Source: a virus
Taxonomy: Duplodnaviria; Heunggongvirae; Uroviricota; Caudoviricetes
IMG/VR virus record: IMGVR_UViG_2609459831_000017
Reading direction: 5' to 3' (one strand)
DNA length: 22,417 nt
The notes below the pieces were generated by a model. That model saw only the letters and a list, made by a program, of their open reading frames with translations, was not told where the DNA came from and did not search any database. Numbering within the stretch: position 1 is the first letter of the stretch; every line of letters starts with the position of its first letter. Positions 1 to 22,417 of this stretch are shown here, in pieces. The translations under genes and the position numbers were made by a program.

Positions 1-1284
1 TTACAGACTTCTGGAAGGTTGCGCAGCTCTTACAACACGCGGTTGATCTTCCGCAGCGTCTTCCAGCGCACTTAAATCACGGTCTTTCACCTCTGGCATT
101 TTCAGCGCAGAGATTAAACCAATCACTGAATATGCCATGATCATAATGGCGATCGGATACCAGGATTCCGTCATGGTGCAGAAAATACCCGCCAGGATAG
201 GACCAAAACCGGAAGCGATAAGACCACCAATTTCTTTAGAAATAGCCATCCGGGTAAAGCGGTTTTTACAGCCGAACATTTCTGCCATGGTAATGTTTTC
301 CAGAGCAAATAATCCCAGCACCGCACAGTTATGAATCACAATCAGTGCAACCATAATGGTGCTCGGGGCATAGCTTTTATCTACAATGATAGAAAGCATT
401 GGCCATGCCAGCACAATCGCGGAGGTATTCATAATAATATACGGGATCCGGCGACCAATTTTATCGGATAACCAACCAAGGAACGGAATGGTCATAAAGC
501 CGAGAATCGAACTGATCATCAATGCATCTGTTGGAATTGCTTTGTTAAACAATAACGTCTGCACTAAATAGCCTGCAAGGAAAGTCTGAATTAACTCGGA
601 GTTACCCGCCTGACCAAAACGCAGCCCTGTTGCCAGCCAGAAGGATTTGCTCTGGAACATGCTACCAGCAGGTGCAGGTTTTGCTGTCGGTTGGTTACTG
701 TCGTTAACCTTCTCAAAGACCGGGCTTTCTTTCAGATTCATACGCAACCAGATAGCAAAGACCATCACGACAACGCTCGCCAGGAACGGTATACGCCATC
801 CCCACGCCAGCAGTTCCTCTTTACTGAGAATGAAGAACATAAAGGCCCAGATTGCCGTTGCGCTCAAGGTTCCGCAGTTAGTTCCCATAGCCACAAATGA
901 GGAGATAATTCCGCGCTTACCTTTTGGCGCATATTCCGCCAGCATCGTACCGGCACCGGAAATTTCCGCACCTGCACCCAACCCCTGAATAATACGCAAC
1001 GTCACCAGCAAGATGGGTGCAAAAACACCAATCTGTGCATAGGTCGGTAACACACCAATTAAGGTGGTACAGATCCCCATCATGGTGATGGTAATAAAGA
1101 GCACTTTTTTACGCCCTATTCTGTCGCCCATTTTGCCGAAAATAAATGCTCCGACAATACGCGCCACATAACCTGCACCGTAGGTTCCCATTGCCAGAAT
1201 TAACGCCATTGCCGTTGATGATTCAGGAAAAAATATTTCATGAAACACTAACGCTGCGCCGAGCGAATATAACTGGAAATCCAT
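1..1284 (-). CDS. ydfJ: MFS transporter (metabolite:H+ symporter type), probably N-terminally truncated by the prophage insertion
   Basis: 427-aa ORF with ATG at 1282-1284 and TAA at 1-3. Multi-pass hydrophobic profile; the MFS loop 2-3 motif G-x-x-x-D-R-x-G-R-K (GKMGDRIGRKK) sits at residues ~50-60, leaving room for only one helix ahead of it. Confidence 0.85.
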   Translation of the reverse strand: MDFQLYSLGAALVFHEIFFPESSTAMALILAMGTYGAGYVARIVGAFIFGKMGDRIGRKKVLFITITMMGICTTLIGVLPTYAQIGVFAPILLVTLRIIQGLGAGAEISGAGTMLAEYAPKGKRGIISSFVAMGTNCGTLSATAIWAFMFFILSKEELLAWGWRIPFLASVVVMVFAIWLRMNLKESPVFEKVNDSNQPTAKPAPAGSMFQSKSFWLATGLRFGQAGNSELIQTFLAGYLVQTLLFNKAIPTDALMISSILGFMTIPFLGWLSDKIGRRIPYIIMNTSAIVLAWPMLSIIVDKSYAPSTIMVALIVIHNCAVLGLFALENITMAEMFGCKNRFTRMAISKEIGGLIASGFGPILAGIFCTMTESWYPIAIMIMAYSVIGLISALKMPEVKDRDLSALEDAAEDQPRVVRAAQPSRSL

Positions 1285-1886
1285 AATTCACAGGTGTTTT
1301 TTCCCATCCTGTGGTTTCCTTGGCGTTTTCTAGGTTTTTTCAGATAGTTGCATTTTTTAAAAAGCATCCTAAGTTCGATCTCAGTGTCTATCTGGGGCCT
1401 ATTTCTGTCCCATATATGCCCCAAAAAAACTCCCCAACAGATAAGTAGTTTTTTCATGGATTTATGCGTAAAATCAAGAACGGCTGGAAATCATTCAATA
1501 CTCACACTATCGAAAAATTTACCAGCCAACCGCAGCACGTTCTTGCATAAGGCGTGTCTGCGGTTTTTCAACTATTCAGATACATCACTCCCATCACATT
1601 CATTCCTCCGCATCAAAGGCATATAGGCTATATCACCTTGATATTTTTCTTTTTCAGATAAAAACTGTTATCTATGTATACTTTTAAACCCAATCCGTGT
1701 AGAGTCTCTGCATAAGATAGTTTGCAGTTGCCGCTTCAGCTTGCGCCATAACCGCCTGATTTTTGCTGCCACCTGTTAGCATTCCTGTATACCTGAAACG
1801 ACAATGTTTATCTACGAACTTTAAGAACACCCAAGATAAAAATTGTCAACTATATCATATATAACACATTACTAATTCGAGGCTAT

Positions 1887-2000
1887 ATGAACAGCATACT
1901 GATAATCACTTCTCTCCTTATCATATTCAGCATTTTTAGTCATGCCCTAATAAAATTAGGGATTGGCATATCCAATAACCCAGACAAAACCGATGTATAA
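1887..2000 (+). CDS. candidate small hydrophobic protein (37 aa, [37 protein letters not shown])
   Basis: ATG at 1887 preceded by GAGG at 1879-1882, TAA at 1998-2000. One predicted transmembrane helix plus a polar tail. Below the ORF-track cutoff; translated by hand. Confidence 0.3.
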
Positions 2001-2068
2001 GTCAACATATCCTGAATCAGACATACAATATCGCAATGAAAATCAATAATATTTTAAGGAATATCTTC

Positions 2069-2302
2069 ATGAAATCAAAAGACACCCTAAAGTGGTTCCC
2101 TGCGCAGCTTCCTGAAGTAAGAATTATCCTATGGGATGCTGTAGTGGAAGTAGCAAAACAGGGAAGACCTATCAATACCAGAACATTGCTTGATTACATT
2201 GAAGGAAACATAAAGAAAAAATCATGGCTGGATAACAAAGAATTATTACAAACAGCGATATCAGTTCTTAAAGACAACCAAAATTTAAATGGTAAAATGT
2301 AA
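2069..2302 (+). CDS. ydfK: YdfK/YnaE-family prophage protein (cold-shock-associated, function unknown)
   Basis: 77-aa product from ATG 2069 (MKSKDTLKWFPAQLPEV...) with AAGGA 9 nt upstream. Matches recalled K-12 YdfK/YnaE; the track ORF starts 11 codons earlier at 2036. Confidence 0.8.
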   Translation: MKSKDTLKWFPAQLPEVRIILWDAVVEVAKQGRPINTRTLLDYIEGNIKKKSWLDNKELLQTAISVLKDNQNLNGKM

Positions 2303-2618
2303 TATAATAAACTTACTTTTTTATCATTTTTCCACTTTAACAACATTTTGCTCCACTTTTCCACGACCAAACAACTTAAAATCTGGTTAAAATAACACGA
2401 AACACTATTCTTCTTCCTTGAGTCCGCCCGGAACTCGAAAAACAAACCGAGTTAAAGCCATTTTTCACAAAATCGATTTTGGGTCTCACCAAAATTACGG
2501 GGTTGCATACGCATTCGTTTATTTTCGAACGTGTACATACAAATATGCACAAAAATAATCAAAATTATTTTCTGCGATGCATTATGATATGAACACCAAT
2601 TTCGTATAGAGTCTCACT

Positions 2619-3306: not shown

Positions 3307-3882
3307 CTACGGCAGTGCTGGCCATTCAATATCCTGTGCAGTTGACGTATCAACACGGTTCAGCAATACCCGATACTTTTTCCATGCTTCCAGCAACGAG
3401 ATTTCTTCCTCCGTTGCAATTTCCAGATCTGCAGCATCCTGAAGCGGCGCAATATGCTCACTGGCTACCTGCATCAGGTTGTTTTTTGTTTCTTCCGCCT
3501 CCCGGATCCGGAACAGTTTTTCTGCTTCCGTATCCTTCACCCAGGCTGTGCCGTTCCACTTCTGAAACTCCCCTTCCGGCGATAACCAGGTAACATTTTT
3601 CGGTAACGGACCGAGTTCAGAAATAAATAACGCGTCGCCGGAAGCCACGTCATAAACCGTTTTACCCCGATGATCTTCAACGAGATGCCACGATGACTCA
3701 TCACTGTTGAAAACAGCCACGAAGCCAGCCGGAATATCTGGCGGTGCAATATCGGTACTGTTTGCTGGCAGACCTGTATGAGGCGGAATATATGCATCAC
3801 CTTCACCAATAAATTCATTAGTTCCGGCCAGCAGATTATAAATTGTTATGGTCCGTGGTTGTTCACTCATTCTGAATGCCAT
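3307..3882 (-). CDS. tfaQ: tail fiber assembly protein
   Basis: 191 aa; matches recalled TfaQ/lambda Tfa. Its start overlaps the stf stop (TAATG). Confidence 0.85.
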
Positions 3883-7234: not shown

Positions 7235-7381
7235 TCACCCCACAAAAAAGCCCGCCTGAACCGGCGGGCTGTCATAACACTGTGTTACCTGGCTAATGGC
7301 CATTGCGGCGGCACCGGGCACCGCCGTTTTGCTGATACGGCTGAGGTTTTCAACGGCCTGCTCAAGACCTTTTATGGCCAT
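7235..7381 (-). pseudogene. remnant of lambda tail gene Z (first ~29 codons only)
   Basis: Minus-strand ATG at 7379-7381, 12 nt downstream of the FII stop, translates MAIKGLEQAVENLSRISKTAVPGAAAMAI, matching the recalled lambda gpZ N-terminus, then diverges into unrelated sequence and stops at 7235-7237. Confidence 0.6.
7243..7270 (-). terminator. predicted intrinsic terminator immediately upstream of the stf ribosome-binding site
   Basis: 8-bp GC-rich stem (7249-7256 pairing 7263-7270) with a 6-nt loop, followed on the minus strand by TTTTTTG. Confidence 0.45.
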
Positions 7382-7392
7382 ACATCCCCCTT

Positions 7393-7746
7393 TCAGCGGC
7401 GACGGTTAACGGCAGGCGGTACGCCCCGTCCAAGCCAGAGATGACAACTTCCGCCATCATCCGGCGAAACCCGATCTACCCAGAAATTTTCCTCACCGAT
7501 GGTCAGCGTGTCTCCACGCCGCAGCTGCCGCACCTCATCAGTCCGGACAAACAGGGACGGGCTGGAGCCTTCAACGCGCACGCCCTGTCCGGCATAGCTG
7601 ATATTTTCAGGGTCATCAAAAACACCACGTATCACAGCACCGGACTGCTCACCGGATGTCATGGTGGCTGACGTTCCCATGTACCCGCGTATCGTTTCAT
7701 CGGCGCGGGCAATGGCAGCATCGAACAGGTTATCGAAATCAGCCAC
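7393..7746 (-). CDS. FII: head-tail joining protein FII
   Basis: 117 aa (MADFDNLFDAAIARADETIRGYMG...VNRRR), near-identical to recalled lambda gpFII. Confidence 0.9.
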   Translation of the reverse strand: MADFDNLFDAAIARADETIRGYMGTSATMTSGEQSGAVIRGVFDDPENISYAGQGVRVEGSSPSLFVRTDEVRQLRRGDTLTIGEENFWVDRVSPDDGGSCHLWLGRGVPPAVNRRR

Positions 7747-7757
7747 AGCGCCTCCCG

Positions 7758-8156
7758 TTATTGCATTCTGGCCAGGCCGCGCGCTGTCATTTCAGCTGAC
7801 ACACCGGCAGAGACACGAAACGCCGTTCCCGGCAGCACAAATGCCACAGGTTCATCCCGCGTGGCGTGAAGTGCATCAGTATGCAGCGTCACCAGTGCCA
7901 CGACCGTGACCAGTTCAGACGTATCCAGAATCACGGTATCCGGCTGCGCTGATCCCACCTCATTTTCATGTCCGGTCAGCACATTTTCCCGGCTGAGAGG
8001 GGTGTCCTGACCGGCAGTTTCATCCGTGTCATCAAGCTCCTCTTCCAGCTCTGCCACACGGAGCGCCAGTTCTTCTTTCGTCCCCGTCAGGCTGACATCA
8101 CGGTTCAGTTGTTCACCCAGCGAGCGGAGACGGGCAATCAGTTCATCTTTCGTCAT
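7758..8156 (-). CDS. FI: DNA packaging protein FI
   Basis: 132 aa from ATG at 8154-8156 (MTKDELIARLRSLGEQLN...), matching recalled lambda gpFI; the track ORF extends 13 codons upstream to a GTG. Confidence 0.85.
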   Translation of the reverse strand: MTKDELIARLRSLGEQLNRDVSLTGTKEELALRVAELEEELDDTDETAGQDTPLSRENVLTGHENEVGSAQPDTVILDTSELVTVVALVTLHTDALHATRDEPVAFVLPGTAFRVSAGVSAEMTARGLARMQ

Positions 8157-8197
8157 GGACTCCTCCACAGAGAGAAAATGGCCCCGAAGGGCCATGA

Positions 8198-8674
8198 TTA
8201 CGCCAGTTGAACGGCCACGAACTCATCAGGATCAGCCAGCAGCATCAGCGGTGCTGACTGAATCATGGTGAACTCTCGCGCCGGATCGCCGGATGTCTTC
8301 CAGTTTTTCGGATAACGGGGAGACGCATTAATACCCTCACTCAATGCATCCGCATCCTGAATACAGCCATAGGTGCGCAGACCGCGTGCATGAGTGTTAC
8401 CCAGCACCATCGTGTTGTCCGGCAGGAAGTTCTTTTTGACGCCGTTTTCCACGTACTGTCCGGAATACACGACGATGGCCACATCGCCATACATCCCCTT
8501 ATAGGACACCGCTTTACCCAGGTCTTTCACCGCTGTCTCCAGCTCGGAATGAGAGCCACGACGGGTATCCAGCTTCTCCCTGACGGCTTTGAAGGAACGG
8601 AACAGCGCCCAGCCTTTCGGATCGAACACGATGATATTCACCACACCGCTGGCGTTCAGCGCGTAGGCTTCGAT
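8198..8674 (-). pseudogene. C-terminal fragment of major capsid protein E (about 158 codons), no native start
   Basis: Translation IEAYALNASGVVNIIVFDPKGWALFRSF...VAVQLA matches the C-terminal portion of recalled lambda gpE. The frame continues upstream past 8674 into unrelated codons, offset by one from the A' frame. Confidence 0.8.
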
Positions 8675-9906
8675 ACGCGCATTTCGTAGCGGTCCAGCTG
8701 GGAGTCGATACCGGCGGTCAGGTAAGCCACACGGTCAGGAACGGGCGCTGAATAATGCTCTTTCCGCTCTGCCATCACTTCAGCATCCGGACGTTCACCG
8801 ATTTTCGCTTCCCACGTCTCACCGAGCGTGGTGTTCACGAAGGTTTTACGTTTTCCCGTATCCCCTTTCGTCTTCATCCAGTCTTTGACAATCTGCACCC
8901 AGGTGGTGAACGGACTGTACGCCGTCCAGATGTGAAAGGTCACACTGTCAGGCGGTTCAATCTCTTCACCGGATGACGAAAACCAGAGAATGCCATCACG
9001 GGTCCAGATCCCGGTCTTTTCGCAGATATAACGGGCATCAGTAAAGTCCAGCTCCTGCTGACGGATGACGCAGGCGTTATGCTCACAGAGATAAAACACG
9101 CTGGAGGGGTCATCCGGCATCCATTTGAGGCCAAACGGCGTCTCTTTGTCGCCAAATTTAAGGTACTGCTCCTTCCCGCAGTGCGGGCAGGCAACATGAA
9201 AACGCATAAAATGCGGGGATTCACTGGCTGCACGCTCAATCTGGCAGGTGCCTCTCACTTTGGGCGTGGAGCCACGGATGGACTTTGGCCAGACCGAGCC
9301 TTCAATACGTTTGTCGCCAAGGAACGTCGGAGAGCCTTCCTGTTCAATATCCTCATCAAAGGCAGCAAGTTCATCATAACCCGCCACATCCACCGACTTT
9401 TCACGGTAGTTTTTTGCCGCTTTACCGCCCAGGCACCAGAAGCCACGACCATTGGTGAAACGCTTCATAGTGAGCGTGTTATCCCGGTGCTTTTTGCCAT
9501 ACCACGGAGCCAGCGCCAGCAGCGACGGAATATCGCGGATGGTCGGCTCAACGTGGGTTTTCATAAAGTTCTCGGCATCACCATCCGTCGGCAACCAGAT
9601 AAGTGTGTTGCGCTGCTTATGCTCTATAAAGTAGGCATAAACACCCAGCAGCATTTTGGAATAACCGACACGGGCAGACTTCACCACATTCACCTCACGG
9701 ATGTAGTCGCTGCCCATCGCATTCATGATGGCCCGCTGAAAGGGCAGTGTTTCCCAGCGCCCTTCCTGGTATGCGGATTCTTTCGGGAGATAGTAATTAG
9801 CATCCGCCCATTCAACGGCGGTCTGTGGCTCCGGCCTGAACAGTGAGCGAAGCCCGGCGCGGACAAAATGCCGCAGCCTGTTAACCTGACTGTTCGATAT
9901 ATTCAC
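8656..9906 (-). pseudogene. terminase large subunit A, truncated after ~409 codons
   Basis: MNISNSQVNRLRHFVRAGL...DRYEMRV matches the N-terminal two-thirds of recalled lambda gpA (641 aa), then 5 unrelated codons (SKPTR) and TGA at 8656-8658. The C-terminal region is absent. Confidence 0.85.
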
Positions 9907-12308: not shown

Positions 12309-12514
12309 TTCATTTTCACTTTTTTAAATCCAACGACAGACGGCTGGCATTTAAGTATTGTGAAATATTATCAAATGTAATCATCATTGATTTACAAAAG
12401 ATACATTTTGCCCCGAAAGGATTCATGTCAGAAACATCAAAAGATGATGTTCTATACTGGGAACCATGACAACACGGGCATCTAAAGTGAATATGGTTTG
12501 TAATATTGTCTACC

Positions 12515-12727
12515 TCAAAGCGCCACTACATGAACAGCGGCAGGACCTTTAGGTCCGTTCTCAATACCAAATTCAACTTCCTGATTCTCAGTTAATGTTT
12601 TGAAATCGTTGCTCTGAATTGCTGAGAAATGGACAAACACATCTTTGCTGCCATCTTTCGGCGTGATGAAACCAAAACCTTTTTCAGGGTTAAACCATTT
12701 CACTAAACCAGTCATTTTGTTAGACAT
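12515..12727 (-). CDS. cspI: cold-shock protein, CspA family
   Basis: 70 aa ([38 protein letters not shown]...) with RNP1/RNP2 motifs (KGFGFI, VFVHF). Confidence 0.9.
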
Positions 12728-13089
12728 AATTATTACCTTTTGAAGAAATTAGCCCTTGGGCAGAATGGTCCGAAAAAAAATATCAGAGAGAAAAACCAAC
12801 AAGGAAATCTCAAGAGGTACAAATAATAAAATTATAACAATGACTGCTTCAGATAAATTTGTAACAAACCAGAACACCATTAACGCATGATTAACCACCC
12901 ATAGCAAGGATTACTTTTGTAAAGAAAAACACAGCAATGAAAGAATAGCTTTATTTATTAATAAAACGTGTCATTCTGATTAAGACCTTTTATCTTACCC
13001 TTAAGATTTCAGGAATTTTGGCTCATGGAAGAGTCCTTTTTATTTAAATTTTACATTCCGCGATGTAAATGTTCCGATTTAATATTACC

Positions 13090-15117: not shown

Positions 15118-15398
15118 GAGATTGTGGTGCTTTTTGTGGGAGTCATCCACTTACGCACTTTGTTTTGCCATGCCAGCAGTTAGCTTCTGCTGTAAAACTA
15201 TTCATGCAGCAAACCTGCACTTCACCACAATGGTTAGCATACTTTTCCTGATTAAGATTTTGCCAAATATGCTAGCCATTGTTTCATGTATTGGACCTCC
15301 TTACTTTTTATTAAAGAGATCCAATATTCACTACTCTGTCCGTATCTCTACTCAGGCATCAGCCTTCTTCGTTATCGTATACAGACGAGCGATGAATT

Positions 15399-15614
15399 TT
15401 AATCAGTAATGATGACATTTGCTGCTGCAGGACCTTTAGCACCACTCTCTATAGAGAAGGTAACCTTTTGACCTTCAAATAAGGTTCGATAATTATCATT
15501 CTGAATCGCAGAAAAATGCACAAACACATCTTTACTACCATCAACAGGAGAAATAAAGCCGAAACCTTTATCAGCGTTAAACCATTTTACTAAACCAGTC
15601 ATTTTATTTGACAT
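15399..15614 (-). CDS. cspB: cold-shock protein, CspA family
   Basis: 71 aa ([53 protein letters not shown]...). Confidence 0.9.
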
Positions 15615-15914
15615 TCTACATTCCTTAACTTGAGCCTTTCGGCATAAATGGTTTGCATAACAGAAACGACTTCGTACTTAATTGGAGAGACTCAAAGAAG
15701 GAATAAGTGAATAACACCTGAAATGAGAACTGCTTTAGTAAACTACTTCGTATATCGTCTGTTCTTCAAACCGACGCAATCATTAACGCATAGTTGAACA
15801 TATGAAGCAATGTTTATTTTAGACATCCAGCCATCTTCAACCCCATCAAAAAACTATAGCTTTCTTCAGGAACGTGTGTATAGTGCGCCAAGTTATCAGT
15901 ATTAAGGAATTTTT

Positions 15915-21254: not shown

Positions 21255-21554
21255 ATGACAAAAACAGTATCAACCAGTAAAAAACCCCGTAAACAGCATT
21301 CGCCTGAATTTCGCAGTGAAGCCCTGAAGCTTGCTGAACGCATCGGTGTTACTGCCGCAGCCCGTGAACTCAGCCTGTATGAATCACTGCTCTACAACTG
21401 GCGCAGTAAACAGCAAAATCAGCAGACGTCTTCTGAACGTGAACTGGAGATGTCTACCGAGATTGCACGTCTCAAACGCCAGCTGGCAGAACGGGATGAA
21501 GAGCTGGCTATCCTCCAAAAGGCCGCGACATACTTCGCGAAGCGCCTGAAATGA
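21255..21554 (+). CDS. insE: IS3 OrfA (transposase N-terminal, helix-turn-helix)
   Basis: 99 aa ([43 protein letters not shown]...) from ATG 21255; the track ORF uses an upstream GTG at 21246. Confidence 0.9.
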
Positions 21555-22417
21555 AGTATGTCTTTATTGAAAAACATCAGGCTGAGTTCAGCATCAAAGC
21601 AATGTGCCGCGTGCTCCGGGTGGCCCGCAGCGGCTGGTATACGTGGTGTCAGCGGCGGACAAGGATAAGCACGCGTCAGCAGTTCCGCCAACACTGCGAC
21701 AGCGTTGTCCTCGCGGCTTTTACCCGGTCAAAACAGCGTTACGGTGCCCCACGCCTGACGGATGAACTGCGTGCTCAGGGTTACCCCTTTAACGTAAAAA
21801 CCGTGGCGGCAAGCCTGCGCCGTCAGGGACTGAGGGCAAAGGCCTCCCGGAAGTTCAGCCCGGTCAGCTACCGCGCACACGGCCTGCCTGTGTCAGAAAA
21901 TCTGTTGGAGCAGGATTTTTACGCCAGTGGCCCGAACCAGAAGTGGGCAGGAGACATCACGTACTTACGTACAGATGAAGGCTGGCTGTATCTGGCAGTG
22001 GTCATTGACCTGTGGTCACGTGCCGTTATTGGCTGGTCAATGTCGCCACGCATGACGGCGCAACTGGCCTGCGATGCCCTGCAGATGGCGCTGTGGCGGC
22101 GTAAGAGGCCCCGGAACGTTATCGTTCACACGGACCGTGGAGGCCAGTACTGTTCAGCAGATTATCAGGCGCAACTGAAGCGGCATAATCTGCGTGGAAG
22201 TATGAGCGCAAAAGGTTGCTGCTACGATAATGCCTGCGTGGAAAGCTTCTTTCATTCGCTGAAAGTGGAATGTATCCATGGAGAACACTTTATCAGCCGG
22301 GAAATAATGCGGGCAACGGTATTTAATTATATCGAATGTGATTACAATCGGTGGCGGCGGCACAGTTGGTGTGGCGGCCTCAGTCCGGAACAATTTGAAA
22401 ACCAGAACCTCGCTTAG
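21551..22417 (+). CDS. insF: IS3 OrfB (DDE transposase catalytic domain), made as an OrfAB fusion by -1 frameshift
   Basis: 288 aa with DDE/RNase-H-fold motifs ([28 protein letters not shown]). Frame is -1 relative to orfA; the overlap includes A-AAA-G at 21517-21521. Confidence 0.9.

Follow-up and report, generated by a model that had tools for sequence, protein, structure and literature searches.

The left junction of a Qin-type prophage within the transporter gene ydfJ of Escherichia coli strain 1303

The stretch of DNA that was analysed, hereafter the window (22,417 nucleotides), begins with the host gene ydfJ, and we are highly confident that a lambdoid phage of the Qin type integrated at an 11-bp core within this gene and split it, leaving in the window a 3' piece that is most likely a non-functional remnant. 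The window corresponds to positions 1787319-1809735 of NZ_CP009166.1, the genome of E. coli 1303, a bovine mastitis isolate, with three single-base differences in 22,417 bases. The ydfJ attL junction of Qin-type prophages is real, common, well documented and already known. It has been reported that integration of Qin at the 5' end of ydfJ led to the loss of the promoter and of 28 N-terminal codons (Ramisetty & Sudhakari 2019, PMC6379469), and genome papers give ydfJ as the site of Qin in strains W, K-12, B and Crooks and as the site of a lambda-like prophage in SE11. The features on which the analysis rests are collected in Table 1.

Table 1. Features of the ydfJ junction, with window positions unless another record is named
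Feature	Position	Strand	Sequence or remark
ydfJ 3' part, codons 29-455 + stop, MHS-family MFS transporter	1..1284	-	427-aa ORF beginning at native Met29
MFS loop 2-3 signature GKMGDRIGRKK	1105..1137	-	ORF residues 50-60; intact YdfJ residues 78-88; direct reading
att core, attL copy	1276..1286	.	GAAATCCATAA; four-way alignment of attP, attR, attL and attB; single occurrence in window
P' arm of attachment site	1287..1563	+	first prophage DNA, AT-rich; ~96.5% identity among otherwise different ydfJ prophages
In-frame TGA from phage DNA	1288..1290	-	two codons upstream of ATG (…CTG TGA ATT ATG GAT TTC…)
Two adjacent hairpins, second then T run (terminator-like)	1482..1565	+	fold z = -4.3
Excisionase xis, PF06806 (DUF1233)	L004:33200-33451		outside window, adjoining attR region
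Integrase, 426 aa, PF12167 (Arm-DNA-bind_2) + PF00589 (Phage_integrase)	L004:33486-34766		outside window, directly beside attR
attL, window			…ATATAACTG GAAATCCATAA TTCACAGGTGTT…
attR, strain 1303	L004:34804-34814		…TATGACTCTT GAAATCCATAA ATTCAAGCGCAG…
attB, XYEH3934			…ATATAACTG GAAATCCATAA ATTCAAGCGCAG…; single core copy
attP, free phage mEp460_ev081			…TATGACTCTT GAAATCCATAA TTCACAGGTGTT…; base-for-base alignment
attB junction sequence			…ACTGGAAATCCATAAATTCAAGCG…
attP junction sequence			…CTCTTGAAATCCATAATTCACAGG…

The initial annotation had described a ydfJ-like ORF that is intact to its stop, with GKMGDRIGRKK at about residues 50-60, and both were found as described, the motif being an instance of the MFS loop 2-3 consensus G-x-x-x-D-R-x-G-R-[KR]. 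The 427-aa product matched the MFS_1 profile with E = 3.5e-37 and TIGR00883 (metabolite/H+ symporter) with 452.7 bits, the curated cut-off being 443.45. It had also been claimed that the gene is truncated at its 5' end, and this was borne out by strain XYEH3934, which has no prophage at the locus and in which rspB, ydfJ (1368 bp, 455 aa) and ydfI follow one another in this order on the same strand, separated by 57 bp and 88 bp, respectively. When aligned with this allele, the ORF of the window was residues 29-455 of the 455-aa YdfJ with one substitution, and exactly 28 residues, MTIEKHERSTKDLVKAAVSGWLGTALEF, were absent. RefSeq/PGAP labels the ORF in strain 1303 'incomplete; missing N-terminus', and the same 'missing N-terminus' flag was on the short ydfJ in every non-K-12 record sampled, whereas K-12 keeps it as CDS b1543. 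Thus, the annotation of ydfJ is inconsistent between K-12 and other E. coli records. The listing of b1543 in the K-12 RefSeq record as a normal CDS would agree with a reading in which ydfJ is complete at 427 aa and the 455-aa form is an annotation extension or a gene fusion, and so would the 12 hydropathy peaks that the 427-aa form still shows. We regard this reading as extremely improbable, since the 455-aa allele (462.9 bits) fills positions 1-400 of TIGR00883 and about 25 additional N-terminal positions of the ShiA and ProP models, spanning ShiA positions 12-434, whereas with the 427-aa form the match to TIGR00883 sets in only at position 7, and that to the full-length ShiA and ProP models only at positions 37-40. 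Moreover, the upstream 84 bp is found beside rspB at the far prophage end, and the empty-site genomes refute 427 aa as the length of an intact ydfJ product.

What was lost from YdfJ is the cytoplasmic N-terminal tail and about the first half of TM1 and not the whole helix, so that the earlier statement that roughly one helix is missing stands as to the loss but not as to its extent. The truncation point lies inside the stretch GTALEFMDF, which we take to be the family stretch G-x-x-x-E-[FW]-x-D-F, judged from the ProP, ShiA and KgtP sequences; in the 427-aa form this stretch is broken and the Glu of E-F-x-D-F is gone. TM1 is expected at about residues 16-42 of intact YdfJ, which would place the truncation in mid-helix. 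A 12-helix topology of the 427-aa product had been proposed as the finding that would speak against truncation. In a 19-residue Kyte-Doolittle scan 12 hydrophobic peaks were indeed seen in the 427-aa form, but the 455-aa form gave the same number, because some hydrophobicity, though weak, is retained in the leftover half of TM1: in the 427-aa form the first peak starts from residue 1 and is a weak one with a mean of 1.08. The topology test does not discriminate between the two forms and the comparison of alleles does. Solved structures were of no use for placing the TM1 boundaries, as in a search by sequence no match had an E value under 1e-10 and the best, at about 3.5e-5, were distant MFS proteins.

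The initial annotation had placed AT-rich prophage DNA to the right of about 1285, and in agreement with this the GC content was 0.45-0.52 within ydfJ and 0.32-0.39 over 1200-2550, with the first prophage DNA from 1287. Comparison with an uninterrupted ydfJ, which had been suggested as the way to find the breakpoint and any att core, showed divergence exactly at an 11-bp core, of which a second copy stands at the far end of the prophage. Homology to the empty-site genomes ends at about window 1290, so that the uninterrupted upstream homology that had been named as evidence to the contrary was not seen, and the breakpoint is within or just after the core at 1276-1286. The host core spans ydfJ codons 28-31, and its minus-strand reading, TTATGGATTTC, contains the ATG of Met29 (TT ATG GAT TTC). 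The second copy of the core, attR, lies about 29 kb to the right of attL beyond the end of the window and was read from the matching public record NZ_CP009166.1. The similarity at the att sites is exact over 11 bp and extends to 15-16 bp when a one-base indel is allowed. Together, attL and attR rebuild attB exactly, with one core copy and no loss of host sequence, and a 611-bp sequence made by joining the two prophage ends at the core was found as one uninterrupted stretch, with 98.9-99.8% identity, in the free phages mEp460_ev081, PhiR42_1, Tritos and HannyBb. Stx2a phages have a related int and attP, with about 90% identity across 61% of the attP query. That the prophage integrated into the 5' end of the transporter gene, as had been proposed earlier, is thus what the attL and attR cores, the empty site and the attP of free phages agree on.

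Decay and the presence of IS elements (IS3 and an ISNCY remnant) in the prophage of strain 1303 might suggest that a deletion, an IS event or another illegitimate rearrangement near the prophage, and not site-specific integration, had truncated ydfJ. There is hardly any chance of this; the rearrangement reading is refuted by the exact rebuilding of attB and by prophage ends that rebuild the attP seen in four free phages. The junction is a textbook case of Campbell-type integration, with the strands exchanged inside the 11-bp core, and no finding spoke against integration. The mechanism we propose is that the tyrosine integrase of a Qin-type temperate phage carried out site-specific recombination into the ydfJ core GAAATCCATAA, leaving the promoter and codons 1-28 beside rspB at the integrase end (attR) and codons 29-455 at attL beside the tail-fibre end. 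The 3' piece is left with neither promoter nor ribosome-binding site of its own, with no N-terminal tail and with only half of TM1, and is most likely a non-functional remnant. From this we infer the loss of ydfJ expression and of its transport function and a polar effect on the downstream ydfI.

Several observations concern the core and the attP arms themselves. The host core is polymorphic at ydfJ codon 30, some alleles having GAAGTCCATAA (ATGGACTTC) instead of GAAATCCATAA, and this variant occurs in prophage-bearing genomes (L009, L010) and in one empty site (L018). In the attP region of mEp460 there is a near-copy (18 of 21 positions) of the core together with the first bases of the P' arm, 127 bp upstream and within the 3' end of int (L005:2673-2693 vs L005:2800-2820; TGAAAACAATAATGCACAGGT vs TGAAATCCATAATTCACAGGT), and it could be due to chance or be a secondary binding site. 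When the attP arms were searched for repeats that could be arm-type integrase sites, only short two-copy families were found and these may be chance.

In free phages the P' arm is contiguous with the integrase side. The two hairpins lie 196-280 nt past the core and on the int-sense strand of the free phage, and it is possible that they are a sib/tI-type element that is split from int in the lysogen. The hairpin region is 88.8% identical to a stretch of HK97 that adjoins the annotated sib retroregulation site and is about as far from the att core as that stretch, but the BLAST match overlaps the HK97 sib by 7 nt only, and for this reason the hairpins are called sib/tI-like by position only.

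The missing 5' piece of ydfJ was sought inside the window and gave no match there. The 5' 84 bp of ydfJ, together with the native upstream region, lies at attR beside rspB, and in strain 1303 this orphan 5' end forms an ORF of 42 codons (L004:34770-34898, minus strand), outside the window. Its equivalent in K-12 is ynfP, whose product of 36 aa, MTIEKHERSTKDLVKAAVSGWLGTALEFMDFKSHAC, consists of MTIEKHERSTKDLVKAAVSGWLGTALEFMDF followed by 5 phage-encoded residues. YnfP has been detected as a small protein (PMC6001520, Table 1), which shows that the native expression signals stayed with the 5' piece. Thus, YnfP is the N-terminal remnant of the split transporter gene fused to a few phage codons.

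The initial annotation had explained the remaining ORF by a fortuitous internal start, and this proved apt, as its ATG is that of the native internal Met29. With Met29 inside the core, the 3' piece retains an ATG at its head and therefore still appears as an ORF of 427 codons, and since phage DNA supplies an in-frame TGA upstream of this ATG, the prophage end gives no N-terminal extension. Whether read-through from the minus-strand tail-fibre operon or an unrecognised promoter at the phage end drives the truncated ydfJ, so that an active transporter would be made from Met29 and would have been rewired to the prophage, is a question for which the evidence has to be weighed. In the sample of 11 interrupted public alleles, seven intact alleles and the window's own, the 427-codon ORF was open in 10 of the 11 interrupted alleles and in the window, one being frameshifted. 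The N-terminal 19 residues of the remnant are, as given above, weakly hydrophobic, and changes of the ydfJ transcript have been reported in K-12, where an RNA-seq study found the gene differentially expressed after DicC induction, which indicates that some transcript exists. However, no Shine-Dalgarno-like sequence was read within 15 nt upstream of the Met29 ATG, and no promoter-like site was found on the minus strand within about 760 bp of the ORF. The promoter and terminator scan upstream of the ORF was set aside as evidence, as its counts were at chance, equal to those in shuffled sequence, and support neither side. The remnant is also without the half of TM1 that holds the conserved Glu, and its open ORF is explained by recent insertion. 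An expressed and active remnant is, on these sequence features, unlikely, and Met29 is only a putative translation start.

The comparison of alleles bears on how old the insertions are. Over its 1284 bp the allele deposited for strain 1303 did not differ by a single nucleotide from the intact alleles of XYEH3934 and 214-4, and identical alleles in both states mean that the insertions are young relative to the divergence of the alleles, or recurrent. The pN/pS values were 0.024 for interrupted and 0.023 for intact alleles; as a test of decay this ratio was rejected, as it is equal in both classes while identical alleles occur in both states, and it is uninformative on function. The private changes of the interrupted alleles affect the membrane core and are M60L, G78S (within the loop 2-3 motif), L186P, M237I, L289P and, in the window, G258E; those of the intact alleles, three in number, all fall in the C-terminal tail. 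This pattern hints at relaxed constraint on interrupted ydfJ, although the sample is small and the difference is not significant, and with the same reservation the membrane-core substitutions G78S, L186P, L289P and G258E and the one frameshift speak against an active remnant. The three bases in which the window differs from the deposited strain 1303 are 596 C>T, 2132 G>T and 19023 G>T. The first of these is the G258E change, which lies in a transmembrane segment of YdfJ and was absent from the 18 other alleles compared. No complete genome matched window 1-2400 at 100%.

The prophage of strain 1303 shows a mosaic pattern of decay (window 7286-9906 and 21255-22417; L004:26794-34766): its tail, major capsid and terminase genes are truncated, and full length is kept by the tail-fibre gene of 3.3 kb, the exonuclease, xis and int. 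The IS3 element occupies window 21255-22417 inside the prophage, the stop of its transposase being the end of the window, and the window has no annotated stx or effector genes. Three Rfam matches reached the gathering score, one to IS009 at 3341-3539 on the minus strand (220.9 bits), within the tail-fibre-assembly gene tfaQ, and two to cspA-type thermoregulator leaders at 12488-12873 and 15383-15775, both on the minus strand, upstream of cspI and cspB.

With int and xis at full length but the capsid, terminase and tail genes truncated, the question arises whether this prophage, defective for particles, acts as a reversible switch of the kind called active lysogeny, excising and restoring rspAB-ydfJ-ydfI. 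The exact core, from which precise excision would regenerate attB, and the identical ydfJ alleles that were found both interrupted and intact would be in keeping with such a switch. The identical alleles are, however, accounted for just as well if active phages such as mEp460 integrated recently and independently, and intQ of K-12 is a pseudogene, and we therefore think a switch very unlikely. If it were true, precise excision under certain conditions would give ydfJ its promoter back, and the cluster rspA-rspB-ydfJ-ydfI would be whole again. For the two exceptions put together, namely that the prophage of strain 1303 is a reversible switch of its host (comK-type active lysogeny) or that the 427-aa protein is made from Met29 and is active, the prospect is quite poor, and integration of a Qin-type phage with a most likely non-functional 3' remnant is the reading that we retain.

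With a 300-bp probe centred on attB, an unbroken attB was seen in 2009 of the 5426 complete E. coli genomes, and in most of the others the probe was split at the core. The Qin-type left end through window 2400 was present in 1986 of the 5426. In other genomes the shared sequence is confined to the P' arm and ends near 1563, 1549 or 1423, beyond which they diverge; O157 strains, for instance, have DinI-like genes there. In strain 214-4 (L014:1590-2900) ydfJ and attB are intact, but rspB itself is annotated as 'missing N-terminus' and lies beside a recombinase-family gene, which suggests a different insertion just upstream in this strain.

The closest known system is Qin of K-12, where the RefSeq feature 'cryptic prophage Qin' begins exactly on the left core copy and ends immediately ahead of the right one. 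It shares with the prophage of strain 1303 the host gene ydfJ, the 11-bp core and the 28-codon truncation (PMC6379469), as well as the end-proximal order ynfT, ydfK, pinQ, tfaQ, stf, nohA and onward, whereas the content of the early region differs. Qin of K-12 is 20.5 kb long compared to about 29 kb in strain 1303, which unlike K-12 has retained the tail-fibre gene at full length, remnants of the head, terminase and tail genes, the exonuclease and intact xis and int. Strain 1303 carries IS3 and the ISNCY remnant and K-12 has IS2 and the pseudogenised intQ, whereas dicA, dicC and ydfABC are present in K-12 and none of them is annotated in strain 1303. The four phages mEp460_ev081, PhiR42_1, Tritos and HannyBb, the attP of which is nearly identical as described above, have the same layout int-xis-attP-ydfK-pinQ-tfa, but they are complete phages of 45-49 kb and not a decayed lysogen. 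The PPydfJ prophages of STEC and EPEC, among which are Stx2a and effector-carrying phages, have the same integration locus, ydfJ, but differ in cargo and backbone; for ydfJ prophages att sequences of 18 or 19 bp have been reported from PCR-derived attP and prophage-free attB (Nakamura et al. 2021, PMC8112680, S7 Fig), compared to 11 bp exact here. Insertion by a tyrosine integrase into a host coding sequence with a short duplicated core is also known for e14 in icd and Rac in ttcA (PMC6379469). In the case of e14, however, the 3' end of icd is duplicated and icd stays whole, and in the case of Rac the N-terminus of TtcA is replaced, whereas in ydfJ the phage end gives a stop and no replacement, and the result is a plain truncation.

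The value of these findings is limited to annotation and current understanding is unchanged by them. The 427-aa 'YdfJ' found in K-12 and in many other strains is what remains of a 455-aa transporter on the 3' side, as YnfP is on the 5' side, and the two belong together. A literature search for a substrate or pathway (RspA, RspB, gulonate) gave nothing relevant. Through the insertion ydfJ is cut off from rspA-rspB, which lie upstream, and so, probably, is the dehydrogenase gene ydfI, which follows ydfJ in the same orientation. About 62% of the 5,426 complete genomes are without a contiguous ydfJ-rspB junction, and therefore the phenotypes of this cluster in K-12 may not represent the species.
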